A stretch of DNA of 64,000 nucleotides from Curvularia clavata (taxonomy: Eukaryota), in NCBI GenBank assembly GCA_023920165.1, contig CP089274.1, forward strand, positions 4,836,001 to 4,900,000, given 5' to 3'. Positions 13,901-62,800 of this stretch are shown in pieces. The notes below the pieces were generated by a model, which was given only the letters and a program-made list of their open reading frames with translations, did no database searches and was not told where the DNA came from. Each line of letters begins with the position of its first letter. Positions within the stretch are counted from its first letter, which is position 1. A program made the translations under genes and the position numbers.

Positions 13901-16900
13901 GACAGTGGAGAGCCGATCAGAGTGGCCTTCTTTGACATATACAATTCTTTCTTGGGCATGTATCAGATCTTCTCCAGTGAAAATTGGACCACAATCTTGT
14001 ACAACGTCACCAACTACCAAAAGCCGTTTGGCATTGCTTGGATTGGTGCATCGTTCTGTATCCTGTGGTTCATTTTTGCCAATTGTAAGTGCAAAGGCTC
14101 CAGTAAATGCAGAGACCATACGCTGACCTCTTACAGTCATCGTGCTGAACATGTTTATTGCTGTCATTCAGGAAAACTTTGACGTTTCTGAAGATGAAAA
14201 GCGCTTGCAGCAAGTCAAGGCATTCCTTCAACAAAAAGAGGATGGCCTGACTTCATCCACTGGGTATGTTGAAAAAGAATAACCAGAATTGAGTCATCTG
14301 TTAACCATTTGTAGCAATCTATCCCTTTCGTCCATTTTCAAGCTTGGCCAGGCGCGTCGTCGAGATCCTCTAGATTATGGCCATGCCGCTACCGAAATGC
14401 TTCTCAAAGACGCAGTCGTTCGCGACTTTCTCGATGAAGGCAATGACCATGAAAGCCCCCACGAAGAAGACCCTCGGCCAGGCATTCGTCCCACCAAGAC
14501 CATAGTGGGCTCCGGGACCATGTCCACCATTTGGCAACGATTGCTGCGCCGCATTGTCCATCGCGAACCAAATCCTTTCTACGCACCCCTAGATTTTGGT
14601 CGCGCATATGAGGACCTCGACCCAAGAAGCATGGCGAAAGAGGTGGTTTCGGCAACGGAGAGGCGCAAAAAGGCTCAGCGCGAGTATTTGCGCAACCACC
14701 CCAACTACAACGTATCCCTGTTTATTTTCCGTGTCAACAACCCAATACGTAAATTTTGCCAGCGCGTTGTCGGCCCCGGTCGAGGTGGCGACCGCATTGA
14801 AGGTGTCGCGCCGTCAGTCCCCATCTGGTATGCATTTTCGGCTTTCATCTACGCAGCCATTATTGCAATGGTACTGTTGGCTTGCATTACCACTCCGCTG
14901 TATCAACGAGAGTACTTTATGCGTCACGAGTTCAGCGTCAAGAACTGGTTCGTGTGGGTAGACATGGGCTTTGCTATCCTGTTCACTGCCGAGGCTCTTA
15001 TCAAGGTTATTGCCGACGGTTTCTTCTGGACTCCAAATGCCTACTTTCGCGGTTCTTGGGGCTTTATTGATGGCGTTGTGCTGATCACTCTGTGGATCAA
15101 TGTTGGTACATCATTTTTAAACGAGGGCCAAGTCACTCGAACTGTGGGCGCCTTCAAGGCGCTGAGAGCTCTTCGTCTGCTCAATATCAGTGACAGTGCG
15201 CGCAATCACTTCCACTCACTTATCATTCGCAGTTGGTGGAAGCTCTTTTCGGTAAGTAAAATTTAACGTACACATGAGCATAAAACTGATGATCGATCCA
15301 GGCTGCTTTTGTCTCGTTGAGTTTGCTGATTCCCTTTGCCATTTATGGTTTGAACCTTTTCGTGGGCAAGATGCAGTCTTGCAACGACGGCGACTTCCCT
15401 GCCGGCGCCAGCCTAAGGGATTGCGTCGGAGAATACGACAGCTCGCCTTTTGAATGGAACGTCTTAGCACCGCGGCAAGCCTCCAATCCCTTTTACGACT
15501 TTGACAATTTTGGAGACTCCCTCTTCATCCTGTTTCAGATTGTGTCCCAAGAAGGGTGGACGGACTGCATGTGGACTGCAATGAGTATCACTGGATTTTT
15601 CAAGCAACCAGAACCCAGAGCGTCCACAGGAAATTCGGTCTACTTCATCATTTTCAACTTGCTCGGAGCGGTTTTCGTCTTGACTCTCTTTGTGTCCGTC
15701 TTCATGCGCAACTACACGGAACAAACTGGAGTCGCCTTCTTGACAACAGACCAGCGATCCTGGCTCGAGTTACGGAAACTCCTCCGCCAGGTCTCTCCTT
15801 CCAAACGGCCGTCGTCAACGAAGCAACGAGAAAGCTGGGAAGAATGGTGCTACCGCCGAGCTGTCACCAAGACTGGGTACTGGCAAAGGTTTATCACCGG
15901 CGTCTTGATACTCCATCTCTTGTTGCTATGCTTGGAATGGTACCCAGGCTATGGTCCTTGGGAGACTGCCCGAGACTACATCTTCCTTGTCCTTACAGTC
16001 ACTTTCATTGCGAACGTAGTCATCCGGATCATTGGTCTCTCCTGGCACCGCTTCCGCAAGAGCGCTTGGGACATGTTCTCCATTTTCTCTGTATCGGGGT
16101 CTTTTGTGACTTCAATTCTTGTGTTGGCGAGAAACGACATTAGGATTTTCGTCCAGCTTCACAAACTCTGTCTCGTCTCGATTGCCCTATTGCTCATTCC
16201 TCGGAACAATTCGCTTGATCAGCTGTTCAAGACCGCGGCGGCAAGTCTGGCATCCATCGGCAACCTTCTCGCCACATGGTTTGTACTATTCTTGGTGTAT
16301 GCCATTGCTCTCACGCAAACTTTTGGTCTCACTCGTTTTGGAGAGAACGAAACTGGGAACATCAATTTCCGTACCGTACCCAAAGCGCTCATCTTTCTCT
16401 TCGTCACGAGCGGAGGCGAAGGTTGGAATCAATTCATGGAAGACTTTGCAACCGTTGACAAGCCCTACTGCACAGTAGGAGACAAGTACTTCAACAGCGA
16501 CTGCGGCAGTCCAGAGTGGGCACGAGCTCTTTTCATCAGCTGGAACATTCTGAGCATGTACATTTTCGTCAACTTGTTCGTCTCGTTGATCTACGAGAGT
16601 TTCTCCTACGTCTACCAGCGGAGTAGCGGGCTCTCTGTCATCAGCAGAGAAGAGATTCGTCGCTTCAAGCAAGCATGGGCGGAATTTGATCCTAACGGGA
16701 CTGGCTACATCTCCAAGGATGTGTTCCCAAGGCTTCTTGGAGTAAGTATATCGTCCCGGAGCGAAGCGACATGACTGACTTTGATAGGAACTTTCTGGAA
16801 TTTTTGAGATGCGTATCTACGACGGCGATTTCACTATTGGTGCACTCATCGACGAGTGCAGTGTGACGAACCGACGGGAGTCAAATTTGCCGGTGCCAGG

Positions 16901-42525: not shown

Positions 42526-43199
42526 TCATACCTTTCCCCTTGTTGGTACGTCGGTCATCCTTGGCTCCAGCTCCTCCCTGCCCTCCCCAGCGCTAGCTGC
42601 GCTCTCCACCTCAGTCTCGTTCTCGTTCTTGTCTTCGTCTTCAATACCGCTGCCGCTTCCTCTTCTGCTCTTTGTCGGGCTTCCTTCAACACTGCTCTTG
42701 TTGCCTCCCATCTCTGAGGCGATTTTCATGAGCAGGTTGCCGTGCGTGACAGTCTCGACAATGTCACGTGGTTCTTCACCGGCCCTGATTCTGCTCAGTG
42801 TTTCCGTCGCATCCTCTTGTGGCAGCGATTTGAGTAATTCGAACAGTACTTCTAGGTCCTGGTGCTTACGCTTCGTTTGGGCGACCTCAGTCTCTTTGTA
42901 CTGGCACTGGCTGTCACGAGACGAACATTCACTACATCGAGGACGCTCGCCATTGCACTAGAAGCGTCAACACATCAGATGTCGTCTTCACTCGACTTGT
43001 TTCATTCTTCTAGCCACTCAGTAGAATATACCTTAGTTTTGCGAGTTCTGCAAGCTGCACAAGCCAAGGTTATGCGAGCTCGCTTTGACTGCGTGGGGGG
43101 AGGTTCGCTTCTCGGTGAGGTTGCGGGGAGCAGAGCACGGAGAGGTCGGGTCGCCGCGGTCTCCCCTGTAGTGACAGCATTGGACTGTTGGGATTGCAT
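42526..43199 (-). CDS. Short Zn(II)2Cys6 protein (~200 aa) without a regulatory domain
   Basis: 'RITLACAACRTRKTK|CNGERPRCSECSSRDSQCQY' across one intron, then a helical segment 'DLEVLFELLKSLPQEDATETLSRIRAG' and an acidic tail. Confidence 0.8.
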
Positions 43200-45132
43200 G
43201 TCACAAAGCTTAACCAGCAGGAGAACGGACCGGGCGAGCAAGACTTTGGCTGCTCGAGAGTAGTAAGCCGAATCTACGGCACGAAAGGCAGGAAACCAAA
43301 AAGCTGAATCAGAATACAAAGCGGATAAAAGATAGTGACAAAAGTAAGCGGCTGCGAACCACAGGTTCTCTCTACGAAGAGATGACGAAAGCCGTGCACA
43401 AATCGCAGGGTAGGGAATTGCCGAAGATTGGCGCGTATGATTGAAGAAATTTGGGAGTGCCTGTTTTAGTCTTTTGGCCTCTCAGGTCTCTCTCTCTGTA
43501 ACCCAACCAGCCCGCTCGGGCATAAAGGAAGCTCGATATTCTTGCCCGTATCGAATTTCTGAATGTAGCCCGAGCTCTGGGCCTTGTAGCGTCTGACGAG
43601 CCCGGTTACCCGCCCACCAACCAAATCGCGCCCTGCAGCTAACCTCGCCACTAAGCCAGCAGCCTGTCGGATCCTGTATATAGGCACGTACAGGCACAGC
43701 CACTAATCAAGCAAAGTCCCGACGAGTGACGCATGAAGCTTTGCAAGCGAAAAATGCGATTGTTGGATCATGGCTGGATTGGCAAATATCCATGAAGGCC
43801 CTGCATACGTGCGTGACTAACTCACCAGGCCCGCTCTGTGCTGCCCAGGCGGAGCCGCTGCCGTAGTAAAGTCCTACTTTTTACTTTCATCTTAACGGCA
43901 AATGACAAGGCCTCCGGCATGCCGAAAGTGCCACCGGCATACAATGCCTCGCCGACTTGCTACGTTTCATTTTGTTCCTTTTCCCTCCCTCGATGTGGTG
44001 TCACTGTACTTTCGTTGACCTGAAGACCACCCCTTCACGCCGATCAATGTACTGGGACCTTCCAATGTGCTTTTGCTGCGTACAAAAGGATCTAGCGCAT
44101 CTGTTTTTCCCACAAAATCAGCTGATAAACACTTACCTTGGCACTGATTTGGTGGCGATTTGTGTGCGATTGCAGAATTATCATACGGCATAGTCGCCAC
44201 TCCAGAGCTGTAACAGACTTCTATTGCCTCGGATCCCTGTTTAGCCCCCAGTTTCAACGGTAAGCTTGCTGTAGGACTAGGGCTTATCGAGCACGCAGTT
44301 TGTCGTCTGCTGGAAAGCTGGCTTGAACAGACCTGTATCTAGACTCCTCTTATGCAGGAGTTATGACGAGGGGTAAAGGACAGCAACGGTAGCGATTCTT
44401 CCGTCTTCCCCTCTTACATCCCGCTAATGCTTGGAGGCTTTTCGGTATGATAAAAGAAAAGAAAAACAACCGGGTACTGTTTCCTTGCTTTGAAGTGGGG
44501 GGCAAGCTGAGCCACTTTGACGTTCTAGAGCACCGTGTCTCGCATGCACAATATGCAAGGCATTATATAGGCGCTCTCCACTTCTCTTCTCACGTTACAG
44601 ATCAATTCTGTTTCCGAAGTTTGTCGGTTAAGACAGGTCGACGCCAGGCGGAAGGATTGCGTCAAAGGGAGAATCATCGAGCAGATCAACCTGCGCGGCA
44701 TTTCCGCGGAGTCGAGATCGAGATCTAAAATCAACGTCCCATTCCGCGTTGCGCTCTGAGATAACATCGGCTCCCCTTCGACTAGGTGGCGAAAGACAGC
44801 AGACACGTTTCGCAGACCCACCCAATGTCTTGTTTCCGTAGAGATATTCTTATTTCCGTAGAAACAGTGGTCTGATTGAAGTTTGTGTTGAGCAGACAAC
44901 GGCTTGTGCAGGAGTAACTACTCCGTAATGTCGTAGTCTTGGCAAGTCTCATCAAACCAAGTAACAGAACTCTCCAACAACCAGGAAAACCGAAAAGTCG
45001 AAACGAGTTCAAATACAAATACAAGCTGCTAGCATAGAAGCTATGAACAAATCCCACAAAATACAAATATCAAGATAACAATGATTTGTCATAACTTTCA
45101 TTAGTCTGCTACGCGGAAAGTTTTACGCTTGC

Positions 45133-48099
45133 TCAATACTCAAAATCGTCGTCAACACTAGGCCCCTTATTCTTAGTCACACTCTCCTGCCGTTGATACA
45201 TCTCTGCTATCATGCGGCTCGAACTTGCCTGATCCGGCTTCTTGTCCTCCCTCTCCTTGATGAACCGTGGAAAGCGTAAGCTAACACCCTTGCCGCCCCC
45301 ACCAACCTCGTCTGCAGCTGCCTTGTACCGCGGCGACAGGGTAAGGTCCGCGGTCTTCACTTCCCAAACATAACGCGGCTCAAACCACACATCAGGTTGG
45401 TCTTTATTGCCGGTCGAGTGTGTATAGAACGGCTTTGGGCGGTCAATGACAATCTCAGAAAGAGTCTTGTGCAGGTTCTCAAGGACGGCTTCAGAGAAAC
45501 CAGTACCAATGTTGCAGACTGTTTCGTATTTTTCCGTCGAAGGGTTGTAGCAGGCAAGTAGGAAGGCACCATACCAGCTTGTACGTTTGCCTTTACCGTA
45601 GTACGCGCCTAGTACGACGAGATCAAGGGAGTCACCCACACCGGCAAGGTAGTCTTTCTTGACCTTGAGCCAGTTTTGCGAGCGCTTGGACGGCTCATAG
45701 TAAGACTCTGGTCCATCCAACATCTTGACCATGAGACCCTCGCAACCCTCCTTTACCGAATCTTCAAGGAGTGTTTGGATTTCCTCTAGTTCGTTGGTGT
45801 TGCCGTACTTGGCAAATGCAAACTCTCCCTCGACCGGAACAAAGGCTTCGTTGAGATGCTCACGACGCTCACGGAATGATTTGGTCACGAGTGCCTAAGG
45901 ATGTTGTTAGTCACCCATTACAGAATAAGAATGGAGATGCCTACCTCGCCATTGAGATAGAGAATATCAAAGGCAAAGACACAAACTTTGACCTTGACAT
46001 CTTCGACCTTGACATCCTTCCTCTTTCGCGTCATCAGCTGTTGGAAAGGCAACACCTTCTTCTCTACCATGTCCCAGGCAACCGTCTCGCAGTCAAGCAC
46101 GAAACTCTTTGTGCCTTGTTTGACCCAGGTCGGTAGTTTGGCGAGGATGTCAGGGTACTTCTTCGATAGATCCTCAGAGTTACGCGAGAAGATATTAGAC
46201 ACTCCACGGTCGCTCTTGCCAGCGTTGGGTGCTTCCGTAGCAAGCTCCACCTCGGCATCGTGGGCGACAAAGTGTATCTGGGCCCGCTCTCCATCGTACT
46301 TGTATTCACAAGTGAAGTCCTTGCCTTCAAAGCGATCCAAGACCTCTGTTATTGACTTTGTCGGCTTGGCAAGCATAGGCTTGAGAGGTACACCAGGCTG
46401 TAGGCGACAGTTCTCGCGCAGGTTCATGATGCCATGCTCAATCATTGCTGGAATGATGACCTCGTAACTTGGAAGCTCACTGTAGACTGTCTTCAGCATA
46501 GCTTCTGCTTTGGCCAGATCCTCTGTTGATGGTGTTTTGCCCTTCAGTGACATCTCGTGGAAGATCATTGCCTGTGCGACAGCCACGACTACGGTCCTCT
46601 CAGCAAGACCCAATCTCAGCTTTCCTTCTAGTGTTCGTACAATGAACTTGGCTTCACTGGGTCCACCTTTGTCCTTTTCGATGTCGATGTGCTTGCCAGA
46701 GTTATGCGCGTCGGCTGCTGACAGAAGTTTCTTGATACCATCAACCTTACGGCCTTGAGCACCCTGACCTTCAACAGTAGCAATACCCATAAGACTCTTG
46801 CGTACACCCTCGACTGTCAAAGCCTTGGGCTTGAACATGGTAGGTTGTTTCGATCGACTCTTCGCTGCGACAAGTCCAAGATCACCAATCTCGTTCTGAT
46901 CGCTCTTGATATGCTGTAGGCTTCGTCCGGTACTCTCCGAGATCGCCTTCATGATCAAAGACTCACCAATACCAAGCTCTATGCCTGCATAATCGGCTGC
47001 GAGCTTGTTGACCATGAGCATGACAGTCGGTAGCATATCAGATGGAGTCAATCGCAAGACCTGTCTCAAAAACAAGGAACAATGCGCAAGAATCTCCAGG
47101 CGTTTCGTGGTCATCTCGATCTTGGAGAATGTTGTGCACAGCGCTGCATACGGCACTGGCTCGCCTGGTTTCCAGTCGGGATATGGGTCTTTGGTGTTGG
47201 ACGCAAGGGTTGTCTGCACTTGTTTTCTTGCCTTGACCTTGACTTCCTCAGGCTCTTCTCCTGAACTCAACACTGCATCTTCCTGTTCTTGGTTTGATTC
47301 GGATTCGTCTTCGGGTAGTGCAGGAGATTTTGCAGTCTCTTTCTTGCTCTTCGCCGCCTTGGTCCGCGCAGGAGGCTCCTCATCTTCATCTTCTGGCTCT
47401 GTCATTTTGGATTCGGCAGCTGATTTCTTTGACTTCGCTGTTGTCTTTTCACTCTTGGGTTTCGCGGCTGGCTTCTTCGACTTCTCCTTCTCTACAGAGG
47501 GCTTCCTCCGTTGACGTTTGCTTGGGGGTTCCTCATCAGACTCCTCTTCTACTTCCTCCTTAATTTGCCTCTTCTTTCCAGTCTCAGAAGTTGTGCTGTC
47601 AACCTCCATTGCGTCGCCATCTGACTCTACCTCTTCCTTAACAGGCGCCCTGACCTCTGCATCTGAATCGGCATCCTCCTCTTGTTCCTTCTTCACATCT
47701 TCAGGTGAGGGTTCTGACTCCTCTTTTGGAGTCGCATCTTTCTTCTCGGGCTTCGGCTTCGTAGAAAAGGCTAGTTTCGATTGCTGCTTGGCTGCCTCGC
47801 CGTTTGGCTTCCCAAAGAACTTTCTGTTGAATGGCAGTCAGCATTGCATCGCCTACTGAAAGACGATAGTTCAGGGTATCACCACACCCCAAAGTAGTCT
47901 GGGAAGACCTGACATACCCAAGGGTAGCCTGCTTAGGAGCCATGGCTGCAAAAGTACGAGTTTGATCTGCGCTACAGCGTTGCGGGGGACAATTACGACG
48001 CAAGATAGAGGAAGATTGGAGCGAACGAAGTGAAGGAAGGAAAGGCGCAGCTAGACGTGGTTTTAAGCAACAATAAGCCACATTGAAGCGGAGGGGCAT
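45133..48099 (-). CDS. CDC9: DNA ligase I
   Basis: Motif I 'CEYKYDGERAQIH', 'EGLMVK', 'WLKVKKDYL', 'SLRFPRF'. Introns 47824-47887 and 45895-45944. In-frame ATGs at 48099 and 47943 (a further one at 48228). Confidence 0.95.
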
Positions 48100-48154
48100 G
48101 CTATAATGGGGAAGAGGGAGCAGTTGCCTAAACAAAAAGGCAGCCACTCTCCAA

Positions 48155-48187
48155 ACGCGTCGCGCCTCGCTGGCCGCGAACGCGAAA
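48155..48187. promoter_or_regulatory. Cluster of MCB/SCB-like G1/S elements in the CDC9-MIX23 divergent promoter
   Basis: ACGCGT at 48155-48160, CGCGAA at 48175-48180 and CGCGAAA at 48181-48187. Confidence 0.6.
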
Positions 48188-48417
48188 GTCGAGCGGCCCC
48201 GGCGCCAGGCGACCCCTGCTGACATCATTAGCCCGGCATAGGATTAGGCGGCATCTTTGGAGCGTCATGACTTTGACATTGCATAACAGCAAACTTTCTC
48301 TAACTTTATCGTAAAGAAACCCGCATCCTCAAACTGGCGAAATATTTCTGGAAACGTTTGGACTCCTCTCAATCCGCGGCTGCTCCCTCAACCCCCGCTT
48401 CATCACCGCCGCTCAAC

Positions 48418-49071
48418 ATGTCCAAACCCTCAGCGCAGCCCACGCTCACGCCACAATTCTGCTTCAACCAAACCGCATTACGAGGTCCGCTTTGTTTAGC
48501 CTCTTGACAACTCCCTCCCAAACCACTAACTAATGCGCAAGCCGGCTGAAAAACAGACTTCCTCCGCATATCCCGCAGCAGCATTGACGACTCCATAACC
48601 CAGAACCTCAACGCACTCCTCACACCGGCGCAACGAGGCTTCGACCCCAGTTCTACAAGCACACGGCAACTATCACCGCCGGGACAGGCACGAGCGCTGG
48701 AGCCAGAGCAATGTGAAGGATTCAAAGAAAAAATTCTATTTCCCAGCTGGGCAGTGCGATCAGACGTTCTCGACTACTGCGCTGGTGTCGCAACATCACC
48801 AGATCCAGACGATCCGGATAGTCTGTTACGGCAGATAGAAGATGCAAAGGCGAGAGAGCGCACGGTAGACGAGCGGTTGGATCCGTACTCCGGACGCTAC
48901 TTTCCCGCCGAAGCGAGGACAGAGAGTCTGGCTATGCTCATGCGCAACGAGCGCGCCGTGGAGAAGATTATACGCATGCGCACATGGAGCGTTTTGGGCG
49001 AGCGATGCGGATTGATGAGCGAGTCGGCAGATGACGCATTTGATAAGTGGAGGGAAGCACGACGGCGCTGA
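48418..49071 (+). CDS. MIX23: Mitochondrial intermembrane-space protein Mix23 / caffeine-induced death Cid2 family
   Basis: 'PTLTPQFCFNQTALR|DFLRISRSSIDDSITQNLN..C..FKEKILFPSW..RSDVLDYC..VDERLDPYSGR..ERAVEKIIRMRTW..RC'. One intron. Confidence 0.85.
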
Positions 49072-49216
49072 TGGAGCATGGGAAAGAAGACCATGACAGA
49101 CTATTTGGTCTGACCGCATAGCGTATCATCTCCACTTTGTACAAATAACAGGCATACATGTCGGCGTCGTTGGATTTACCTTGGCAGCGGTTGTTCCCAA
49201 ACGCAACACAGCAGTA

Positions 49217-49770
49217 ACATTCGTCCCTGTGGGTCGAACATCCCCCCGCAACGAACCACGAACATTGTTCAACCATGTTATGCCTACGTTACACAGTTGT
49301 ATAGGGTCAAGCTGATAAGACTTTGTTTATCGCATCTATTTCTACCTATGGCATGTTCTATAGTTACAGTAAAATTACAGCATTATAGGCTGTATTCTCT
49401 AGCTTTCTGTCTTACGCAAAAAAGCTGCAATGACAAAACACCCCTGCTCTTTCGCACGCAGCACTATCTCTCCATCCTTCGGTGCGTCCTTGCAATACAT
49501 GATCAGCTAAAGGATATAATTCTGCTCGTAGAACATGCGCAGCCTCTGTTTGCATGTATTCCGACTTTCTCCGGCTCAATGCGACTCTCGTTCGCTCCAG
49601 GCACTAGGGCTTAGCGTGCTGACATAGCAGGTTTCGAACAGTTAGCGGCCTGCATTATACACTTGCGCTATACCAAAACGACTCGAGCTGTGGCGCAAAG
49701 CTTGAGAGGCTTCGTCTAGCCACTACTTACATGCGCAGTTGCTTGCTGCCTATTCTTAGAGATTAGCTGG
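49217..49770 (+). repeat. Left long terminal inverted repeat (~550 bp)
   Basis: Collinear anchors with the right arm: GTATAGGGTCAAG 49299-49311, GACAAAACACCCCTGCTCT 49432-49450, CTCGAGCTGTGGCGCA 49682-49697, CTATTCTTAGA 49750-49760. Confidence 0.9.
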
Positions 49771-49900
49771 GAACAGATAGTTACTGTAAGATAAATATCA
49801 CATGCATTATTAGGTAATAAGTCCTAAATACATCAACTTTTGAATTAGCACAGAGGCACAATATTGAGAGAAATCTTTCCATTTACTCTCGACTGCTCAT

Positions 49901-52900
49901 CTAGACTAACTGACAAAGCCAGACCCTTCCTGATCCTACTCCTATGCCTAGTTGGGTCTCACTTACAGCCGAGCTTGACGGTCGATACTCAGAGGGTATC
50001 CATAACATATTGCTACCAGCGTAGATAACCCAGTTGCCACCAGAATTTATACTCGCACCCTGGTACTGAAGTTTTGATGCTGCAACGTTGATGGGGTTCG
50101 TGACCTGGGAACTAGAGATACTGATAGTGCCTATTTCTGTATAGAGTAAAGTGCCAGTAAAATCGAAAGACAAGTGCAAGAGGGATATGCCAACGTCAAG
50201 GGTATGTAGGCACATCTCGCTGCTTGCGTCCCAGATCTTGACGGTGCTGTCGTCTGAAGCTGACGCTAGCCGGGTCGAGTCGTGCGAGAAGGCCACCGAG
50301 CGAACACTATCGCTATGGCCCTCGAGCGTGTGTACACACGTCCCACTGCTCACATTCCAGATCTTGACAGTGCTGTTATTTAATGCTGACGCTAGCCGAG
50401 TTGAGTCGTGCGAGAAGGCCACTGACGTAACAGCATTGCTATAGCCTTTAAGTGTGTGCACACACATTCCTCTCCTCATCTCCCAGATCTTTTCATAGTT
50501 GTCGTCTGATAATGGCGCTAGCTGGGTCGAGTCGAGTGAGAAGTCCACTAAGCTAATATTGCTACTATAGCCCTTAAGCGTATGTAGACATGTTCCGCTG
50601 CCTACGTCCCATATCTTAACAACATCGTCCCAAGATGATGAAGCTAGCCGGGTTGAGTCGTGCGAGAAGGCCACTGATATAACAGCATCGCTATGGCCCT
50701 GGAGCGTGTGCACACACGTCCTGCTACTCGCGTCCCAGATCTTAACAGTGGTGTCCATTGACGCTGACGCTAGCCGGGTTGAGTCGTGCGAGAAGGCCAC
50801 TGACGTAACAGCTTTGCTATGGTCCTCGAGCGTATGCACACGCGTCCTATTGCTCATGTCCCAGATCTTGACAGTGCTGTCGTCTGACGCTGATGCTAGC
50901 CGGGTCGAGTCATGCGAGAAAGTCACCGACTTAACATCCCAGGTATGGTCCTGGAGCGTGTGCAAACACGTCCCGCTACTCGCGTCCCAGATCTTGACGG
51001 TGCTGTAGCCTGACGCTGACGCTGACGCTAGCCGGGTTGAGTCGTGTGAGAAGGCCACCGAACTAACACCATAGCCATGGCCCTCGAGCGTGTGCACACA
51101 CGTCCCGCTGCCTACATCCCATATCTTAACAGTGTCGTCCCAAGATGATGAAGCTAGCCAGGTCGAGTTATGCGAGAAGGCCACCGAACTAACACCATAG
51201 CCATGGCCCTTGAGCGTGTGCACACACATCCCACTACTCGCCTCCCAGATCTTGACAGTGCTGTCGGCTGACGCTGACGCTAGCCAGGTCGAGTCGTGCG
51301 AGAAGGCCACTGAGGTAACCCAACCACTATGGCCCTCGAGTACGTGCACACACGTCCCACTGCTGGCGTCCCAGATCTTGACGGTGCTGTCGCCTGACGC
51401 TGACGCTAGCCGGGTCGAGTCGTGCGAGAAGGTCACCGACGTAACACCACTACTATGGCCTTCAAGTGTCTGCAGACACGTCCCACTGCTAACGTTCCAG
51501 ATCTTGACAGTTCTATCGTCTGACGCTGACGCTAGCCGAGTTGAGTCGTGCGAGAAGGTCACTGACATAACAGCATCGCTATGACCCTGGAGCGTGTGCA
51601 CACACGTCCCGCTACTCGCGTCCCAGATCTTAACAGTACTGTCCTCTGACGCTGACGCTAGCCGGGTTGAGTCGTGCGAGAAGGTCACTGACGTAACACC
51701 ACTGCTATGGCCTTCGAGTGTCTGCAGACACGCACTCCAGCCGTTGCTTATAGCGGGCTTGATCGTTACTCCTCTTGGCTCTTCGTGCTGGAACAGCCTT
51801 CTTACTATGCTATTAGCTGGACTGAACAGCAGAGCAGATGCGTATGCCTGTAAAGGATAGTTCTCGATCGCCTCCTTATGATACATAATGAACCGTCGTG
51901 CGTCGTACACGATCTTGTTCAATACGTCCGTGTCTCCAAGTCCCTAGCTACGTTAGTAACTACACTGTGAAGGCCGTGTATAGATGTAGTTGTATTAGGC
52001 GTACCTGGACTAGATTCCATAACCTTGTTATCGAGACTACCCCTTTGGCCATGCTTCTGCACAAGCTGAGCGCTTCTAGCCAGTAGAGATATTTTTGCTC
52101 AAGAAATGCGTCTATAGTCCTAGTGATTTCTTGATTAGTAGCACTAGATTTTGAGTCGCAGAAGTGGTCAATCCAGTACACACATGGGTAGCGCGACGCG
52201 GCTAGAGGATCGGGAAAAAGTGGCTTAGCGTCTTCAATAGCATATCCAGGCGCTTGAAGGTTGTATATATCTCTGCGCAGTGTCTTGTGCAGAACTACAA
52301 GTGATTTCGCGAAGATATCTTGATGCACACATTCTATACCGTCTAGAAAGACGTCATTTAACGCTTTCGTAGTAAGGAAGTCCTTAGCTGATTGATGTAC
52401 AAAGTACACCGTATCGTCTCGCAGCGTTAAAAATGATCTACAGAGACCGATAATCTCCCGCACGGACTCTAGATCATTAACAAGGTCTGCAAGTTGCTTA
52501 GTTAATATAACTAGCTCATTAACTGTGACCGGTCGATATAGGACAGCAGCCACTGCTAGCACCCGCAGACATCTTCGAGCGCTACTAGACTTATGTATCT
52601 GATCCAACATCTGCCTAAAAAGTGAGTCTAAACCAGGCGGGAGCCGGGCTAGCATCTCACGCACGTCCCATTTCGGCGTCGCTTTGAGGTCTTGGCACAC
52701 TAACGCAACCCAGAGGAAGGTGTCGTTCGCATTCGAGGTCAAGTGCTGGAGCACCGCGTCTTGCATCTCTGGCGTATAGCGCTTCTCTTGGGCTAGCCGA
52801 GATACCTTCTGCTGGATAAAGACCTTAACCGCTGCTGAGACTAACTCGGCGTTCAGCTCAAGGCTTAGCAGCGTTTTGCGCTCTACACGCTCTAGTTGTT

Positions 52901-54233
52901 CCTCGATAGTTGGCCAGTTTCGACTAGACACGATCCACTTGACGCGAGAGGACATAGATGACTGCTCTACGATAAAGCAAAGTAACTTTAGCTGATTAGT
53001 TATGCATTCATCGAGTGCGTCGATAATTATGTACGTTGTGCCTAGACTTGCATCTTGCAGCACGTTAGCGAAGATCTCTGTTAGAGCGACCCAGGCATTC
53101 GCGTCCTCGAACAAGCTTTTGCCTGCATGGTCGTGCTTCTTGCGGACGTGCGATACAAGAGACGGCTGCTGGTGTATAAGCATATACAATAAACCCCGCA
53201 GCACAGCGGTGGCACTATTAATGCGCGAGTCAGTCGCTTGGCAGAAGAAGTACGACAGAAGAGTATTCTGAGGTAAAGAACTTCGCAGTTCGTTGATGAC
53301 GCCACACAGCAGCATCGTTTTTCCCTTGCCAGGATCGCCTTTGACCCAGAGCAGTCGGCTGTGCTTGTCCTTATGCCACTGCTTAAACGCGGTGTTGTCG
53401 AGGATCCAACGGTAGGAGTCTACTAGCAGTCCGCCTTTTGTCTCCTCGATGCGCTTCTTGTCGTCGCGCGGGTCTGTTTGGCGTATGTCTTGAATGCATC
53501 GTTCCAGCTTGTGAACCTCGTCCATCAGACGCTTGAATGCGCTCGGTCCTCCTTCACCGTAAGCCGGCGCAATCTCAACATCTAAGACGCCTGCTAACGA
53601 ATACCACGCATCTTCATCGCGTTTGGTCTGCCTGTCGCCTTTCCACTGCAGACGCTGCTTGATACTAAAACAGGAAAGCGGAGTTCCGCTAAGAACTTCA
53701 AGCGGTATACCTGTTGTCTTGTGAATCGGGAGCTTAAGCGAAGTCTTGTTGCCAAGCATCTTTCCTTCTTGAGAATAAAACTCAACAACAGTAGGGGCGA
53801 GAAGCTCTTGAAGCGTCCAGCCACGTGTGAACCACCGACTCGACCTGAATGCAAGCTCCGAGCTGGGCCCTACAGACATGCAATCAGCGTTGATAGACAC
53901 ATCTGAGAGGAAGACGTAGCACTTGATGGCAGAGCGGTACCAGTGAAACATGGACTGTATCGCACACGAATGTTCAGCCTTATCTGTCGTGTCGATGCAG
54001 CACGTGTCAATCCAGAAGTACTGGAGATTGTCGTGCTGCGCTTGTTTTCCGCAGAAGAGGATCTTCTTGTAGCCTGGCTTTATCTTGCCACCGCCTGTCT
54101 GGAGGTCTGCAAAGGTCACCTCGTCCCCATCTGCCTCCCAGGTGTGTGAAAGTATCGCGTAGGGGGGTACAGCGCTATCGTCGAAGCTGTGGATGCTGAG
54201 CTCTCCGCTTTCGCTGTACTGTAAGAGCCGCAT
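49901..54233 (-). CDS. HET-NACHT-WD40 (HNWD / HET-E-like) fungal NLR, ~1423 aa, intact
   Basis: HET motifs YAILSHTW, YFWIDTCCID and SRWFTRGWTLQELLAP. NACHT Walker A GDPGKGKT and Walker B IIIDALDEC. 12 WD40 repeats. One 61-nt intron (51944-52004; GTACGC..ACTAAC..TAG) joins the two ORFs in frame. Confidence 0.95.
50210..51727 (-). repeat. Highly internally conserved WD40 array, 12 x 126 bp (one unit is 132 bp)
   Basis: Span of 1518 bp = 12x126+6. Consensus (V/L)HTLEGHxxxVxSV(A/T)FSHDSTRLASASxDxTVKIWDxSSGTC. Confidence 0.95.
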
Positions 54234-54934
54234 AGGTTCGTATGGGTGTGTACTAGGCGCACGCGATAGGAACGAGACTCGAAAGGCCGAACTCGGTAAC
54301 CTAGTTAGTCGCGCGGGCGCTTGTTGGCTGCTTTTCTGCTACCGATAGATGGTCAGCATACAGAGAAAACGACGAGCAGGTGCACCGGCTCAGGTACCAG
54401 CAAGATCCTTGTGATGCGTCAAGGTGTCGCGACTTGAGGCTGCCGGCTTTGTTGTAGGTACTCTTGTTTTGGTGGAATTATGTGTGAAGCCCCAGGCGGG
54501 GTAAAGCGTGCCATGTGTACTGCTCGCAAGGCTGAGCCGCGTCTGCATCCAAAGCTGCAAAGGAGCTGAAGCCCTTGGCGCTATTGCCAGGGTCTAAGCA
54601 CTGACGCGCTTAAAGCTTGCCATTACAACTCAGGACATATGAGAAAGCAGTTGCGTAAATGCAACACTTGGTTAGTTATAGACAGCATTTATGTTTAGAT
54701 TCGACTCAAATTTTCCTTCCTATCGGGCCTACTCAACGCTGCGAGATCCTGTCATACAGAGCTAGAGAGAGTGGTCTAGTACATCCTGGCTACAGGCGCT
54801 CTCCATGCAGATACCAGCGCATGTGTTAGCTTAGGCGCATTGATATTTTGCATTGATACTTCAAGCTTCAGCAACGATAGAATTGTCGGTCCTTCTAACG
54901 CGTCGCTCTTGAGAAGCCAACAGAATCTACAACC

Positions 54935-55480
54935 AGTCTGCTTCTAAGAATAGCTGACAACTGTGTGCTTGCGCAGCACACGGTAGAAGCTTCTAGAGCG
55001 CTGCGCCACAGCTCGAGCCGTCTTGGTACAGTGTAAGTGTATACATCACAGGCCCCTAAGCTTTCAATACTGGCTGTGTCAGTACGCTAAGTCTTCTCGT
55101 CCAAACTGATGAACTGGCACGTCGCACCGGAGCAACTCGGAGAGCACTTGGATCAGGGCTGCACACATTTCTAAGAGTAGACTATATTATACAGTTACTT
55201 AAGTATCTTATAAGGGCTCCGAAGAATCGGGCGATAGTGTTATATAAGAGAGAGCAGGGGTGTTTTGTCGTTGCACCTTCTATGCCAAAGACAAGAAACT
55301 TAAGAACACAAGCTACAACGTTGTAATTTTACTATGTAGAGTTTGCACTAGGTAGATATAAAGGCAAAGAATACAACCTTATCAACTTGACCCTATACGA
55401 TTGTGCAAGGTGGGTACAACATGGTTGAACAACATTCATGGTTCGTTGCGGGGGGATGTTCGACCCGCAGGGACGGACGT
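54935..55480 (-). repeat. Right long terminal inverted repeat (~550 bp)
   Basis: Reverse complements of the left-arm anchors lie at 55386-55398, 55251-55269, 55002-55017 and 54943-54953. Spurious ORFs on opposite strands of the two arms share peptides (MVEQ.SWFVAGGCST, YRVKLIRL). Confidence 0.9.
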
Positions 55481-56410
55481 TATATAGACCGTCGATCACA
55501 AGTGCAAAACTTGGATCAATGCTGGAATACATTGCTTATCGCTTGCAACAGCCAGACCAGGAACTTGCAAAGGACTGTCCAGAAACAAAGTCGTGCTTGA
55601 CGCACCTCTGACATAACAGTCGCAGCGCAGACCTCCCCTTACAAATTTTTTTGCAGGCAGAACACACAATCAGCGCAACTCTGGCAAGCCAACAGCACGC
55701 AACGCATCGCACAACATTCGCTTCAGCAAGCTGGCAGAATGCAGCAAAAACCACCTTAGTAAAAAGGCATGTCCCACACCATCCCACAACTCCAATCCAT
55801 CTTTTCACGGATAATTGCAGTTGGTAGGAAAGACGGGCGGATTATCTTCTACGGGGCCGGGAACGGAGAACTATCCACAGAGGAAAAAGAGGGATAACTC
55901 TCAGCAAGCCGCTTTCGCGGAGCCACGATTTTTAGGTATGTAGATTACCAACTGATGATGAAGAAGAAAGAAGAGGGACGGGGACCGGCGTGGCTTTATA
56001 CCTACGTACGCCGGCGCGCCGGGGAGGGGCTGGGACGGTCTGTGCGGTGAGCTAGCTTAGTCAGCAGTGGAGGCTGGAAAAAAAATCGTCAAATTTCCTA
56101 GGGACGGCTGGACGGCGGGGACTCGGAGTGGGGCATAAAATTCACTGATGCTCGGCATGAGAGATGGCTGGTAGCAATGGTTGTGCAGCAAAATTTCAAT
56201 GTCAGGGACGGCAAGTTTGCATAGCACGGGAATAGTCCAACTTCATCACGCTTCATAAAAAGACACTCAAATGGCGGGTTCAGGCATGCATTCAAGCTAG
56301 CTAGACCCATCCGTTCATATCCATCGAGATTCCATAAGATCGTAAATCATGGCCATTTGTCTTCCGACAAATCGCCACGACATAACCCAGCAGACATAGC
56401 GATAGACCCT

Positions 56411-57170
56411 CTAGTAGAGACGCTTGGGGGGGCTCATGGTGGCCTTGATGGTCAAGGAGCCCACGTTCTGCCATCCCTTCTTAAGCAGAGAGACGAGGTA
56501 GTTGATGGCCAACATGATGTTTCCAATGAGCTCGTCCTCGGTCATGCCAACGTTGCCAATAGCGACACCCATGCACAGAACCTTCTTCAGCTGGAACTTG
56601 ATGGTGGACTTGATGTCGTTCATCTTCTGGGCAAGGTCCTCGTTGTGGGAAACGGGGGTAGGGAACTTTCCGGCCTTGGAGAGACCGGGTCCGAGGAGAC
56701 GAGGAATCTGCTTGATGAGGGCGTCGGAAGCCATGAAGGCATCGTACTTCTTGGCGAGCTTCTTGATGAGCTTCTTGTTCTTGTTGAGCTTCTTCAAGTC
56801 CTGTCCAAATTGTCAGACATATTCGAATGCGAATTCTATCGTACTACTCACATCAGTGCTCATGGCATCGACACCGTGGTGCTTGGCACGGTCAATGTCG
56901 TGCTGGTCACCGAGAACGCAAATGCTCATGCCTAATCGCATCCATTAGCCCATGCCTACTAGCCTTTGTCTCCGGTATCAACTTACGAGGACGGGGAAGG
57001 GTGGGGAGCTTGATGGTTCCGGAGAAACGCTTGTCACGCTGGGGGTCGTAGTTCTTGAGGCCGATCTGGAGTTCGACGGTCTCGAGGAAGTTCCTCTTCT
57101 TGGTCTCGTTGGAGTACTCAAGGAGCTGTTGGACGTTCGTGCGAACGCCGGCGACAGAGATTTTCGACAT
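56411..57170 (-). CDS. RPL1: 60S ribosomal protein uL1 (L1/L10a)
   Basis: '[28 protein letters not shown]', '[13 protein letters not shown]', '[14 protein letters not shown]'. Two introns. Confidence 0.97.
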
Positions 57171-57948
57171 GTTGGCTGATGTGTCTCCCAGAGGATATCG
57201 GTTCCTTTGGTGGCTCTGTCAGTGGTGGTGTTGGAGAAAAGTGAAACTGGTGGCGGCGGATTTCAGAATGTGGGCGAGGGGACGCTAGCGAATACGACGC
57301 TAGACCGCTTTTGTGCACCTGGACACAACTGACTCCCGCAACTCTGGATAATCAGAGTATATGAAACTGCAGACACTAGAGATTGGTCACATGTAGTAAA
57401 GAAAATTAACTTGATAGCAAGTATCTATCTGAAAAGGTCCAAATCCGGCAGTTCTGAGCCGCAAAATACTCATGTCCAACCTCTCCATGCTCATCAGTAC
57501 GAGAAGCTTGCAAAACAGAAATCGGCTACACATGAAGACAGTAGCAGATTTGCACATTACTAGCATGAAACTATGAGAAGAACCATTCAAATATCGTACA
57601 TTCGCTTTTTGTCCCACATAGGTGTGCACTACGCCATGCAATGCCCGAAACTCCTCGCCATGACCATGAGTCCAAGAAGAAAATACAATGCAAGAAGAAA
57701 CAGCACATGCCACAAAAGACTGCTGCTACGGGTATCCCGAGAGAAACCCTAACGCCAGATCCACACCGTTCCCATAAGCCAAACCAGATCAAACCAAGGG
57801 GTATGTTGTGCACACGGGCCGTCGCGCCAGATGGAGCAAAAGCAAAAGCCAGAGATATACAGAGGGCGAGAGAGGGCTGTTCGGGACTGCTGAACATACC
57901 CGGGCCATTTGTCGAACTAATCAAAAAGCCACCGTATCATTCGTCATC

Positions 57949-59220
57949 TCAGTGCATGAGCTGCTGGTTGTTCGTGGCATCAACAACATTGTCGGACAGG
58001 TTGATCAAGAGTTGAGCGAGACAGCGCTTGGTAGCGGCATCATCCCGCAGAACAGAGGAGAAAGTAGCATCACGCAGCGGCTCGGGCAGGCACTGGCGGA
58101 GCGCCTCGCGAGCGCGAGCGTTGTCGCTCAAGCTGTCCAAAGTTAGACAAGAAAATGGAGGTGTATATGTCGAAGCAACTTACCGAAGAAAGCAGCGCAC
58201 AACGTGCTTCAGCAGGCGGACCGTCTGCTGTTCCACAAGCTGATTGACCATGTTGCTGAGAACAGTGCCGACAGCGTAAAAGCGCTCATAGGTCTGGCAG
58301 ATGTAGGCGAGCCCAATGTCGTCAAGCAGTATCTTCTGGACGATGAAAATGGCCACAGTCTTGCTGAGTTCAGAGCCTGTCTCCATAATACGCAGACAGA
58401 GCGGAATGATCTCGGTTGTGAGCAGGAAATTGATGACTTCAGAAGAGTCATTCTTGACAAGAGCGCCAATTACACCAAGAGACGTCAGGCGTAGGTATTC
58501 GAAGGGTCGTGACTTGGACGTTGTGTTAAGAAATGGATATAAGAAGAGCGGGATATGCGCTGTGATACTGTCAGTTACGTTGACCTAATGCGGAGTGTGC
58601 TCCATACCGCTCAAGAACAAGCCACGCGTTTCGGTGTGAGAAGCCACGCATTGGAGAAGCGCGAGAGCATTGCAGACACGGTTGGAAGCTGCAGCAGTCA
58701 ACTGCGAAGGGTTGAGCAGGGGGTAAACCGATATGATCTCCTGGAGAAGGGAGGCCATGACACCTAGCAGATAGTCGTCAGTACTGCGTTAGAATATCAC
58801 GCATCTAATGGCCATACCAAAGGAATGCCAGAGAATCAGAGCCAATTCTGGGACCTGCTCCCGCTTCTTGCTCAATTCCAAAAGCGCTGCCTCGCGAGTG
58901 GCAGGCTTCATGAGCTGGGCGACCCATTCCAAGACGCGCCTGTTCTCGTCCGTCATGCCAACATCGGCTGCCTGGACATCGTTTGCTGGCCCCCGAGGAA
59001 CGGCGTTGTTGCCAGGTAGGGCCGAGCCATTGTTGGCCGCAAGCTGCTGGTGATACTGTCGCTGCGCAGCCGCCTGGACAGCTTGCGCCTGTTGCTGGGC
59101 ATGCAACTGAGCGGCTTGCGCTTGATGCTGTCCGTGCTGGGCTACATGGTGTTGCGGCTGCTGGTGGTGGCCCTGACCCCACTCGCCGTACTGTTGCTGA
59201 TGCGCGAGGAAATGTTGCAT
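57949..59220 (-). CDS. CAF40: CCR4-NOT subunit Caf40/Rcd1/CNOT9
   Basis: '[27 protein letters not shown]', '[23 protein letters not shown]', '[16 protein letters not shown]'. Gln-rich N-terminus. Three introns. Confidence 0.95.
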
Positions 59221-59897
59221 TGGCTGCGTGTCGTAACGGGTTCGTGGATGGTGTGGTGTATCAGTGAGAAGGAGATGGATTGTACGCGTCTAGATAGAAG
59301 GCGACGTGCGACCGAAGAATAGGCGGGTGGGTTGGCGGGCGGGCGATGAGGGATTGGGCGTGGGTGAGTGTGCTCTGGCTACGCTCGAGAGGTGAGGCCT
59401 CAAAGCACCCCACTGGCGCGAGCGGCTTGGCGTTTGCGGGAGCTCGTGCTTTCGACGGAGATCGACGGCGCGTCCGCATCAGGTACAGCTTAGGCAACGG
59501 TATAACGTGGTAATAGCACAATAATAGTAAAACTATAGTGAAGGTGACGGGGCAGCAGTGAAGGGAGCAAGTGCCCCTGCAAGGGTCCAATGAGCCCACA
59601 ACCCTGTGGAGTGAGAGCTGGACTCAAGATTCATTATGTCACATCTAACGTCTTGTCCATCCCCATGTGCTCCCGACCGCTCGAACCATTACAGGGAAAC
59701 GACAAATGAAATTCGTTGGGCGGTTTTTGTCTCATGAAGAAAATTTGCTCCCAAGACCTTCGAACTACTTGAAAGAAGAAAAAAATTATAGTCAATAGGT
59801 GGGGTTCAAAGAATTGACGTCCGCATGCCAATTTTCGAAGAAATTAATGAAAAAAAAAAGAATCCAATACTCTCATACACCGTTTCCAACAAACTAA

Positions 59898-62800
59898 TCA
59901 TAGCCTCAGCTCCGAAAGAATGGTCTGGGCCATGTTCTTGTACTGCCAGGTCCCTCCGTCTACCTTCTTAAACTGGATACCATGTAATGTCAACAGCGGA
60001 ACTTTGACAATTAGAATCTCAAACACAAGATTCATGCTAGAACCCATATCACTCTGAACATGCGTTGACGTCTCGCCGGCAGGTACTGCTCGTCGTGGTC
60101 GTCGCTCGTCACGGTCTTCGCTGCCATCAGACTCATCTGTGTTTGTGTAGCTGCGGTCTGCGGGGGATGGGCGTGAGCGTGACTTTGGTGTGCTGGGATT
60201 GCGGTTCTGATCCCGGAATTCGTCACGCTCTTTATCGCCGCCCATAAAGCCTCCAAAGCTAATCCTCCTCTTGTGTCCACCAGGTGGTGATGCAGGCGCG
60301 TCCATTGCCCTGTTCATATCGATACTGGGCGAGTGTCGGCATCTGAATCCACCTTTGATTTCACTCCATTCCACGCCAAGTTGATCCAGCACCCTGATCA
60401 AGTCATCTTGGATAACGGCAAGTGGCTTTGTGCTGGTAGTGGAGACGCTGAAAAGACCCTTGAGAAAGACAGGCTTGACAGCGTCTGGGCTCCGACTGGC
60501 TTCTGCTTGTGCCTCTGCAAGCTCTGCGTCCGTCTCTTCGGGCACATTCGCTTCTTTTGCTTGTTCCCTCTTAGCTCTCCGAGCTTGTATGCTTTCTCTT
60601 CGCGCATGGCCTAACGACTTCGCCCGCGAGGTCTGACTTTGCCGTGAGCCCGAAGAAAGTTCGTCGGAAGCAGCATCGTTGGCCGCTCGAGCTTTGTGTG
60701 CACTCATATCTGATCTGTCGGATCCACTCGTGGGTGGTGGGTTTCCAGGATCTTCCGAGGACCGTCCACGTCGGCTGAGTCGTCTCCGCAGGTCTGCCGA
60801 GTTGACACTAGTCGAGCGACCGAGTGCCTTAAGTTTGCGGGCAGCAGTGTTGCCAGTACTAGGGGGCGAGAGTAACTCGGGCTGGTTGGTAGCGCTTGCA
60901 GGAAGATGTGACGCTGATCCTGCATCGCGGTCGCGTGCCCGTCGAATACTGAAGCTCTTTCTTGGCGCCGAGGTTGAGGGTGCAGAGACTGCCTCAGGAG
61001 GACCAGAGATGGCAACGGCTGGAGTAGCAGGTGGTGGTGGTAGCGTATCAACCTTTTCCCTGTCATGGCTCCGGTATTTCCTAGTACTGAAGCGACGTAA
61101 CAGACCAGCGGCAGCTCCTTCCTTCTTCTGCTGCTCGACTTGAGGTGGGAGAACTGGTGGTAGGTTGTTCAAGTCTACCCTTTTTAGGCTGTCAGTAATG
61201 TCGTCCTCGCCATGTGTCCTCGCTCTGGGCCGTGATCTTCCGCCTGTAGGCTTCTCGCCTGCCATTTCATAGGTTGCTGAGTTGGTATACGCAGCTGGAG
61301 GAGCGGGAAGGTCTGGCATCTTCAGCGGCTTCTCTTCTGGGGCCGCCTGGGGCATGGCGGCAGGGCCAGGGTCTGCTTCAAGCCGCTCCCGTTCCATTTT
61401 CTCCTTGACGAGGAAGTAAACCGACAGAAGGGGGCTGTAAGCATTCACGGGATCCATGCCTCTCTGGATGTCCTCAGAAGACGAAGCTGTCAATTGCTCC
61501 CTACTGCCGATTGAGTTCCGTCTCTTGTAAAAGTCAAACATGCCCCTCTTCTTCTCCAAATCGGGTGTCTGTGCAGTAGTCTTACGGGCTGCTAGTCGCA
61601 CAGCACGCTGGTAATCTTCCGACTGAATCAGGTTGGTCAGTTGGGCGGTGATGTACTCAGGGGTTCCGAAATCGAAGCCGTGCATCTTCTCAATAACCTC
61701 GCTGTCTAGCGGCAGTTGGATTGGTTCTCGGTGAGGCAGGTAGTTTTCTGGAGGGCTGTTGAACCCCTTGGTCAGCCAGGGATGGACCATGATTTCCGAA
61801 AGTGTCAGTCGCTGTGTTGGATCTGTTTGCAACATGCGGTGAATTAAATTGCGACATTCTGTGCGAGTTTTAGTATGGCATGCATTGTCAACTGTGTGCA
61901 ACAACATACCGGTAGACAACCAGGGTGGATAGTCGACATGTCCCTTTTTGATTTTTGCGTGCAGCTGGGGCATGCTCTGATCGTCGAATGGCACTTTACC
62001 GCATACGAGGACATAGAGGACGATACCAAAACTCCAGACGTCGACTTCCGGGCCAGTATATTGCTTGGCCTGGAGAAGCTCGGGGGCGGCAAAGTACAAG
62101 CTTCCACAAAACGTTTTCAGCTGGTTACGGGGGGAGAAGAGGTTGCTCAGTCCAAAGTCAATAATTTTGATGTCGCCCATTTTGCTGATGAGAATGTTCT
62201 CAATCTTGAGATCGCGGTGGACGATGCTGTTTCTGTGGCAGTAGTCGAGGGCGCTAGCTATCTGGCGGGCAAACTTGCGAGCCTGCTTCTCCTTGAGGCG
62301 ACCATGCGAAATGATGTAGTCGAGCATCTGACCACCATTGACGTACTCAAACATCATGTACCAGTGGTAGTTTGTTCGGACGACATCTTTCATGCCGCAG
62401 ATGTAGGGATGGCTGAGGAGGCTGACGATGGCGGCCTCCCTGGCGGTGCGGACTTCCTTGGAGTGGTCGGCTCGTTCGCGGTCAGCGGCGCTCTGGTGCT
62501 GGTCCTGGGACTGTCGAGGCACGATCTTGACAGCGGCCTAGAAAGGATTAGCATTGTCCCTTGCATGATTGACGCAGCCAGCGGAATGGTGCAGCCAAGC
62601 CAATGCCCCCCCATTGAACCATGTGGCAACGAAACAAAGGGTACACACCTGTTCTCCTGTATCTACGTTCTTGGCCAGCTTGACCTTGCCCATGCTGCCA
62701 GCGCCGATTGTCTTGCCTAGTGCCCATGTTCCTGTGGTCGGGGCGGTGATGGTTGTCCTGCGCTTGTTGACGGGCTGGGGCTGCATTGTGCGGGCATCGA

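Follow-up and report, generated by a model that had tools for sequence, protein, structure and literature searches.

An NLR gene enclosed by two inverted arms

The DNA examined here is a 64,000-nt window of the genome of Curvularia clavata (assembly GCA_023920165.1, contig CP089274.1, positions 4,836,001 to 4,900,000), and all coordinates below are positions within it. The window carries a cassette of about 6.3 kb, whose segment 49217-55480 measures 6,264 bp and encloses a single gene, for a HET-NACHT-WD40 protein of NLR type (NOD-like receptor), between two long inverted arms. It lies between the 3′ ends of MIX23 (plus strand) and of an L1/L10a ribosomal protein gene (minus strand). A first, sequence-only reading had described inverted repeats of about 550 bp around one gene, with a TA abutting each end. 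Both points were borne out, the former by a repeat search, a MAFFT alignment and blastn of the arms. The repeat search yielded three collinear inverted blocks: 49215-49360/55337-55482 (146 nt, 80%), 49368-49485/55216-55333 (118 nt, 75%) and 49656-49713/54986-55043 (58 nt, 83%). Alignment with MAFFT carries the similarity of the arms inward to about 49775 on the left and about 54935 on the right. The sole blastn match of each arm within the window was the opposite arm (72.1% over 505 nt, E 1e-64); no further copy of either was found in the 64 kb. The 3′ untranslated region and terminator of the NLR gene probably fall within the left arm.

At offsets within ±4, the boundaries show no direct repeat of at least 3 bp, and a target-site duplication longer than 2 bp was rejected on this ground. 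The terminal bases, TAA at the left end and TTA at the right, do not form a direct repeat. The TA dinucleotide has a frequency of 4.0% across the window. The target duplications of Mutator-like elements or Pack-MULEs (9-11 bp), hAT (8 bp), PIF-Harbinger (TWA) and piggyBac (TTAA) do not fit these boundaries. An LTR (long terminal repeat) retrotransposon or a pair of solo LTRs was also rejected, since the repeats are inverted, start with AC(A/G)T and not with TG..CA, and have no duplication of at least 3 bp. The cassette is supported as a mobile unit because its inverted arms have sharp outer ends with a TA on both sides. The coordinates of its features are collected in Table 1.

Table 1. Features of the cassette, from left to right, with the terminal inverted repeat abbreviated as TIR.
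Feature	Position	Strand	Basis or remark
Left TA, candidate target-site duplication copy	49215..49216	.	Sequence read; only direct repeat at the boundary, offset 0
Left TIR proper, 63 nt; best-conserved core is the first 44 nt	49217..49279	+	57/63 positions match the right tip
Left arm of the long inverted repeat	49217..49775	+	Repeat search, alignment, blastn
NLR exon 2: linker, 12 WD40 units, C-terminal tail	49901..51943	-	680 aa, stop TAG 49901-49903
Tandem array of 126-bp WD40-coding units	50128..51819	-	11 in-register copies; spacings 126 bp in 9/10, one 258 bp
Intron, 61 nt, GTACGC..TACTAAC..CTAG	51944..52004	-	Exons join in frame; P0001 joins at the same residues
NLR exon 1: HET, NACHT/NPHP3_N NTPase, linker	52005..54233	-	743 aa from ATG at 54233
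Unique upstream region inside the cassette, presumed promoter and 5′ untranslated region	54234..54934	-	From the start codon to where the right arm ends inward
Right arm of the long inverted repeat	54935..55480	-	Repeat search, alignment, blastn
Right TIR proper, 63 nt; first 13 nt identical to the L001 copy	55418..55480	-	Tip comparison
Right TA, candidate target-site duplication copy	55481..55482	.	Sequence read, boundary test

The terminus recurs next to unrelated DNA

JGI metagenome contigs were scanned once for exact matches to 23 nt of the tip. The scan returned one match, contig L001 (1,063 nt). On the minus strand of this contig, the similarity to both arms begins at the same base, with a TA before it and unrelated flank beyond, and runs for 190 nt, up to the contig end. 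Searches of other collections gave no match to the arm among plasmids, which is to be expected of fungal DNA, and no exact match to the 23-nt tip pattern among prokaryote genomes. The tip letters were also looked up in published full texts; the matches listed were unrelated by title and abstract and look like chance.

L001 has further features of its own. A second exact copy of the 13-nt tip motif stands at L001:1019-1031 (minus strand), in the same orientation, and the match goes on for two bases beyond the motif. This copy, at a distance of 841 nt from that of the arm (L001:178-190), has unrelated sequence after it and no TA before it; it may be the end of a different element with the same tip, or part of a nested arrangement. 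Between the two motifs, four 25-bp tandem units occupy L001:228-351. The open reading frames (ORFs) between the tip-like motifs were considered as decayed TPR repeats, a candidate that was dropped when Pfam gave no family even at E = 1.

Logan contigs of four public runs (X2, X3, X4 and X8) were aligned to positions 43000-62000 at a threshold of 80% likeness; run X2 bears the same organism label as the source of the window. At least two further X2 contigs start matching at about 49214, each with at least 255 unrelated letters before this point. In X4, five contigs cover position 55438, all with the other base there. The X2 and X4 contigs at the tips thus define the terminus as that of a low-copy dispersed repeat family.

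Paralogous sequences were also met in these runs. The upstream non-coding region of the cassette (54413-54831) is matched by a single contig in each of X2, X3 and X4, at depths of 92.9, 122.2 and 7.08. In X2 this contig goes on into the inner right arm (54967 to about 55147), with gaps at 54246-54413 and 54831-54967. The match, itself weak, suggests that a second, diverged copy of the non-coding backbone of the cassette may lie elsewhere in the X2, X3 and X4 genomes. Paralogous HNWD contigs of the same three runs align on both sides of the intron, and at 51923-52001 they have 73 different letters in place of 77; the position of the intron is therefore common to the paralogues and its sequence is not.

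Filled sites and a probable empty site

Contigs of X2 and X3 bridge both boundaries of the cassette. The divergence of X3 within the cassette (4/1032, 11/2493 and 14/2467) is like that of its flanks (45/6285 and 9/4903), from which it follows that the cassette was inherited at this site in the X2 and X3 lineages. X4 has pieces 99.7-100% identical to the window in the flanks (records 16, 18 and 20); at the listed variable NLR positions and at 55438, every X4 contig has the other base. X4 was not counted as an instance of cassette absence, since contigs are evidence of presence and not of absence.

Between run X8 and the window, 84 of 10,739 flank letters (0.78%) are different. Record 24 of X8 has 2,414 letters, of which 1-2337 fit 46878-49214, up to the base before the left TA. 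As no record of X8 continues past its fit with 20 or more letters unlike the window, the remaining 77 letters of record 24 must fit the window. In the bin 48706-49339, the depth of 14.3 is exactly 509 positions × 17.8; as this depth is fully accounted for, the 77 letters are not in the left arm. All nine bins of 49340-55045 are at depth 0. In the bin 55046-55679, the depth of 44.8 corresponds to record 25 (54 positions × 500.9) plus about 76 positions × 17.8. The 77-letter tail and this depth figure fit 55481-55557. From record lengths and depth, and with the letters of the joint unread, we hold with good confidence that a contig of X8 joins 49214 to about 55481 and represents a precise empty site. 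An empty site with a single TA in a relative had been anticipated from the window sequence.

The skipped part in X8 was considered as an intron and rejected, its ends not being GT..AG on either strand. The zero cover of the NLR gene in X8 was not counted as absence by itself, only the cross-joining contig being used. X8 is listed as 'DNA?', and the depth over the L1/L10a gene (55624-57397) is 231-501 vs 8-18 at the neighbouring genes.

Conserved tips on diverged arms

Over 49217-49775, the two arms agree in 370 of 560 aligned columns; a transition is seen in 119, a transversion in 61 and a gap in 10. The arms thus differ at about 34% of positions, with a transition to transversion ratio near 2. 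As claimed from the first inspection, the outer 63 nt hold 57 identities and six transitions with no transversion, and the inner arms are much more diverged (57/63 vs 314/498, Fisher p = 3.9e-6). In the first 44 nt, the left tip matches the right tip at 40/44 positions and L001 at 41/44. All three pairs formed by the left arm, the right arm and L001 agree at 40-41/44 in this core and at 66-75% past position 63. Conservation of the tips far above the arm interior is what constraint on a transposase binding site predicts. Transitions polarised with L001 go both ways (in the left arm T>C 6, G>A 5, C>T 5 and A>G 3). Repeat-induced point mutation as the sole cause of the arm divergence was therefore rejected, with 61 transversions vs 119 transitions and polarised transitions in both directions.

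The arms are about 34% apart and the lineages at most 1% apart, which implies that the arms had already diverged before the insertion or excision at this site. The roughly 500 bp of each arm beyond the tip would accordingly be an old inverted duplication that diverged before the unit arrived, and only the tips would have needed to be functional for the arrival or loss of the cassette. To judge by this pattern of conservation, the functional TIR is probably the outer 44-63 nt only, and the earlier view of the whole 550-bp arms as TIR is overstated. No inner copy of the 60-nt tip was found in the arms in either orientation (scores 11-14 vs a shuffled mean of 15-16), so each arm is not a small element by itself. 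On the same ground, we rejected a pair of separate small elements as well as a long TIR in which binding sites recur internally.

The cargo gene and the surrounding window

Pfam domains and open exons confirm that one intact HET-NACHT-WD40 gene is enclosed, as had been read from the sequence; its start codon was moved to 54233 (Table 1). The domains follow the HNWD order (PF06985, PF05729/PF24883, PF00400). Exon 1 matches HET (E 5.6e-10), NPHP3_N (E 1.5e-37) and NACHT (E 3.1e-12), and exon 2 matches WD40 (E 4e-133) in 11 stretches. The WD40 units are 42 aa long, with one spacing of 44, and have a mean pairwise identity of 61%. By these domains the gene is of HNWD type.

The closest public protein is P0001 of Curvularia clavata, named HET-D2Y-like protein. 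It is identical to exon 2 at 659/659 residues and to exon 1 apart from 58 aa, an in-frame stretch missing from the public gene model. The next named relative is from Bipolaris maydis (P0002, 84%), followed by paralogues and other Pleosporales at 75% or less in the protein matches; paralogue P0020 has 75% identity to the NLR. Other named Bipolaris species among the matches listed reach 62-68% (P0014, P0015 and P0023), and Podospora HNWD proteins among the matches 52-54%. As to the public model itself, the 58 in-frame residues dropped by P0001 lie in the 52400-52600 region of exon 1, and the model stops about 20 residues ahead of the stop of the open frame (49904-49966). The frame of the window is open at both places, and P0001 may hold one or two spurious introns.

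The absence of a transposase from the cassette, noted at first sight, was upheld by Pfam. None of the 14 other ORFs of at least 80 aa in or overlapping the cassette reaches the Pfam threshold, and no transposase or recombinase was found among them; neither the cassette nor the 64-kb window contains a DD(E/D) transposase. Rfam families and tRNAs were not found in 48500-56200. The neighbours are those first named, DNA ligase I and MIX23 on one side and the L1/L10a ribosomal protein, Rcd1/CAF40 and a KIN1-type kinase on the other. The rest of the window consists of housekeeping genes, which besides these five are a calcium channel, Cef1, eIF3h and Tim54, and no other repeat or transposon was found in the window outside the cassette. 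The calcium channel gene is a long multi-exon gene (10964-16771) with four Ion_trans blocks, of Cch1 type.

Origin of the cassette

We consider it probable that 49217-55480 is a non-autonomous, TA-targeting, Tc1/mariner-like cargo element, moved by a presumed transposase acting in trans. TIRs on both ends (560-bp arms, tips 57/63), and shared termini at unrelated sites together with a presumed insertion polymorphism, were found as in the Tc1/mariner-pogo group; no second copy was seen with both ends. The sequence-only reading had proposed such a non-autonomous cargo transposon. The L001 terminus, the X2 contigs and the presumed X8 empty site support that proposal, while its 550-bp TIR and its impression of an undescribed arrangement need correction. 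The unit would be a class II, cut-and-paste element of the Tc1/mariner-pogo kind, whose only gene is an intact HET-NACHT-WD40 NLR with its own flanking regions. The transposase, the product of a gene outside the unit, would bind at the conserved tips of 44-63 nt and cut at both ends, and the whole unit would insert at a TA, which would be duplicated. Here the target would have been the interval between the 3′ ends of MIX23 and the L1/L10a gene, in a core housekeeping region of a Curvularia clavata-like genome. The old, diverged remainder of the arms (about 500 bp each) would now form most of the non-coding flanks of the gene.

Several points weigh against this account. Only about five other termini were seen, none with its far end, and neither an autonomous partner, nor a transposase, nor a second complete cassette was seen in the window, the four runs or L001. 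The 13-nt tip motif, with up to two mismatches, was found four times in the window vs 4.64 expected, which is not above chance. The arms are far longer than the 74-bp TIRs of ToxhAT, a transposon compared below. Read on the opposite strand, TA is again TA, and the dinucleotide at each end may therefore belong to the repeat itself instead of being a duplication. As for the empty site, the right breakpoint in X8 is fixed only within 55046-55679 and may be up to about 66 bp past the TIR. The right flank reads TATATAG, in which an empty site with one TA is indistinguishable from one with none extra. X8 moreover looks RNA-like or mixed, so that zero cover of the NLR is weak evidence when taken alone.

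The cassette could also have arrived, or been lost in the X8 lineage, without any transposase, by double-strand-break repair, ectopic recombination or fragment capture, the arms being an old local duplication around the NLR and the TA a microhomology or chance. Neither the cassette nor the window has a transposase, the arms differ by about 34% and their substitutions follow ordinary patterns, the 2-bp TA is short, self-complementary and merely extends the inverted repeat, and the exact letters of the empty site are unread, all of which would suit such a route. However, the same terminus starts at the same base, with a TA, next to unrelated DNA in L001 and recurs in at least two other X2 contigs. 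The tips stand well above the arm interior in three copies, and the left breakpoint of X8 falls on the base before the TA. We regard an origin without transposase as unlikely.

A second alternative is an old resident cassette, immobile now or never mobile as a whole, which suffered a secondary deletion in the X8 lineage that began by chance at the left terminus. The wide interval of the right breakpoint and the ancient look of the arms leave room for it, and long vertical descent could account for the fact that the closest named relative of the NLR belongs to a different genus of the family (Bipolaris maydis, 84%). However, a left breakpoint at exactly 49214 among thousands of positions would be an unlikely coincidence, and the 77-letter tail and the depth fit 55481-55557. 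Moreover, the other named Bipolaris proteins among the matches listed, at only 62-68% (P0014, P0015 and P0023), form a patchy and not a uniformly vertical pattern. A resident cassette with a chance deletion therefore seems quite improbable.

Two independent insertions of a repeat of about 560 bp, either a solo LTR or a small non-autonomous element, facing opposite ways around a resident NLR, are very improbable: the arm terminus is indeed a dispersed repeat, and repeats often gather near fungal NLR genes according to the account in PMC13449251, but the arms have no inner tip copy in either orientation, no separate target duplications were found at the boundaries, the repeats are inverted and not direct with no TG start or CA end, and the X8 lineage without the arms is also without NLR cover, its contig apparently joining across the whole unit.

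For transposition of the cassette as a cargo element, three parts are what we infer: the empty site in the third lineage, the duplication of the TA, and the existence and identity of the transposase.

Significance

The turnover of NLR repertoires in fungi is very fast. Until now, the known vehicles of NLR genes have been the giant Starships and the 14-kb ToxhAT/ToxTA, in which NLRs ride with many other genes. The cassette and its presumed absence in a close relative suggest a simple way in which such genes change position in fungal genomes, and the cassette is a concrete and easily tested candidate vehicle for NLR translocation. If our reading is true, no smaller or clearer case of a mobile immune-receptor gene would be known from a eukaryote than this 6.3-kb unit, with working tips around one complete NLR. 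The question of NLR translocation would then become a simple test by means of the 44-nt tip and of filled and empty TA sites. If allorecognition genes transpose, this would also affect how vegetative-incompatibility loci arise and spread.

A broader idea, doubtful at present, is that the cassette belongs to a family of small, TA-targeting, TIR-tipped, non-autonomous 'NLR cassettes', which regularly carry a complete HNWD-type receptor together with its promoter and use a Tc1/pogo transposase of the host. Such a family would provide a mechanism for the translocation and the presence or absence of NLRs with high repeat identity in Pezizomycotina, and could possibly lie behind transfer between species as well. 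On this idea, the conserved tips at the ends of such ancient arms would point to a long common journey of receptor and ends, with selection acting on the unit. Weak hints come from the paralogous contig in three runs, which shares the upstream region and, in X2, the inner right arm, and from the patchy occurrence of the closest named relatives among Curvularia and Bipolaris.

Comparison with known systems

Pack-MULEs of plants are non-autonomous elements with long TIRs around host sequence; they make 9-11-bp duplications and mostly carry gene fragments. Members of the Tc1 family with TIRs of several hundred bp also exist, for example Tc3, and long-TIR Tc1 elements have repeated binding sites in each TIR. 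The cassette resembles both in its long inverted ends enclosing host sequence, as in non-autonomous or long-TIR elements. In contrast to Pack-MULEs, it is flanked by TA only and has a complete gene as cargo; unlike in the long-TIR Tc1 elements, no repeated inner binding site was found in its arms.

With the HNWD/NWD genes of Podospora (het-e, het-d and het-r), the cargo gene shares HET, NACHT and tandem, highly similar 42-aa WD40 units, as these genes are presented in PMC1805685 and PMC13449251. The descriptions of the Podospora HNWD genes drawn on here mention no TIR-bounded cassette. According to a 2026 study on the Podospora species complex, NLRs whose repeats are highly similar show more frequent association with transposable elements and occasional translocation, by a mechanism that the study, in the portions relevant here, leaves open (PMC13449251). 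Starships are likewise cargo-mobilising elements of Pezizomycotina, in which NLR genes are often accessory (as outlined in PMC9156397 and PMC12506042). However, Starships are described as having a DUF3435 tyrosine recombinase, the 'Captain', at one end and a size of tens to hundreds of kb. Pfam found no DUF3435 recombinase among the ORFs of the cassette, which measures 6.3 kb and has one gene.

The closest precedent is ToxhAT/ToxTA of Bipolaris sorokiniana, and to go by its accounts in PMC6737239 and PMC12506042, the initial impression that the arrangement was undescribed does not hold. ToxhAT is described as 14.3 kb long, with 74-bp TIRs about 92% identical and eight genes, including ToxA, and nested transposons; one gene, of patatin type, is assigned by the authors to the NLR family (PMC6737239). 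In Bipolaris sorokiniana it is, as summarised in PMC12506042, flanked by TA, with a single TA in empty sites, and has been renamed ToxTA as a likely non-autonomous Tc1/mariner element. The hosts named in PMC6737239 and PMC12506042 are Bipolaris sorokiniana, Pyrenophora tritici-repentis and Parastagonospora nodorum. As so described, the cassette and ToxhAT/ToxTA are alike in being bounded by TIRs, flanked by TA and loaded with host-type cargo, without a working transposase of their own. Both occur in the same fungal order, Bipolaris belonging to the family of the closest named relatives of the window. The reported 74-bp TIR is also in the range of the probable 44-63-nt TIR of the cassette. They differ, in a comparison by description and not by TIR sequence, in that the cassette is 6.3 kb long, has one HET-NACHT-WD40 gene and has 560-bp arms conserved at the tips only. 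No published TIR-bounded cassette with an NLR as its sole gene was found among the papers listed by full-text searches, which did not extend to Repbase and subscription journals. What is new here is a single HNWD gene as the sole cargo together with long, diverged arms, in an element whose general kind is already known from ToxTA.

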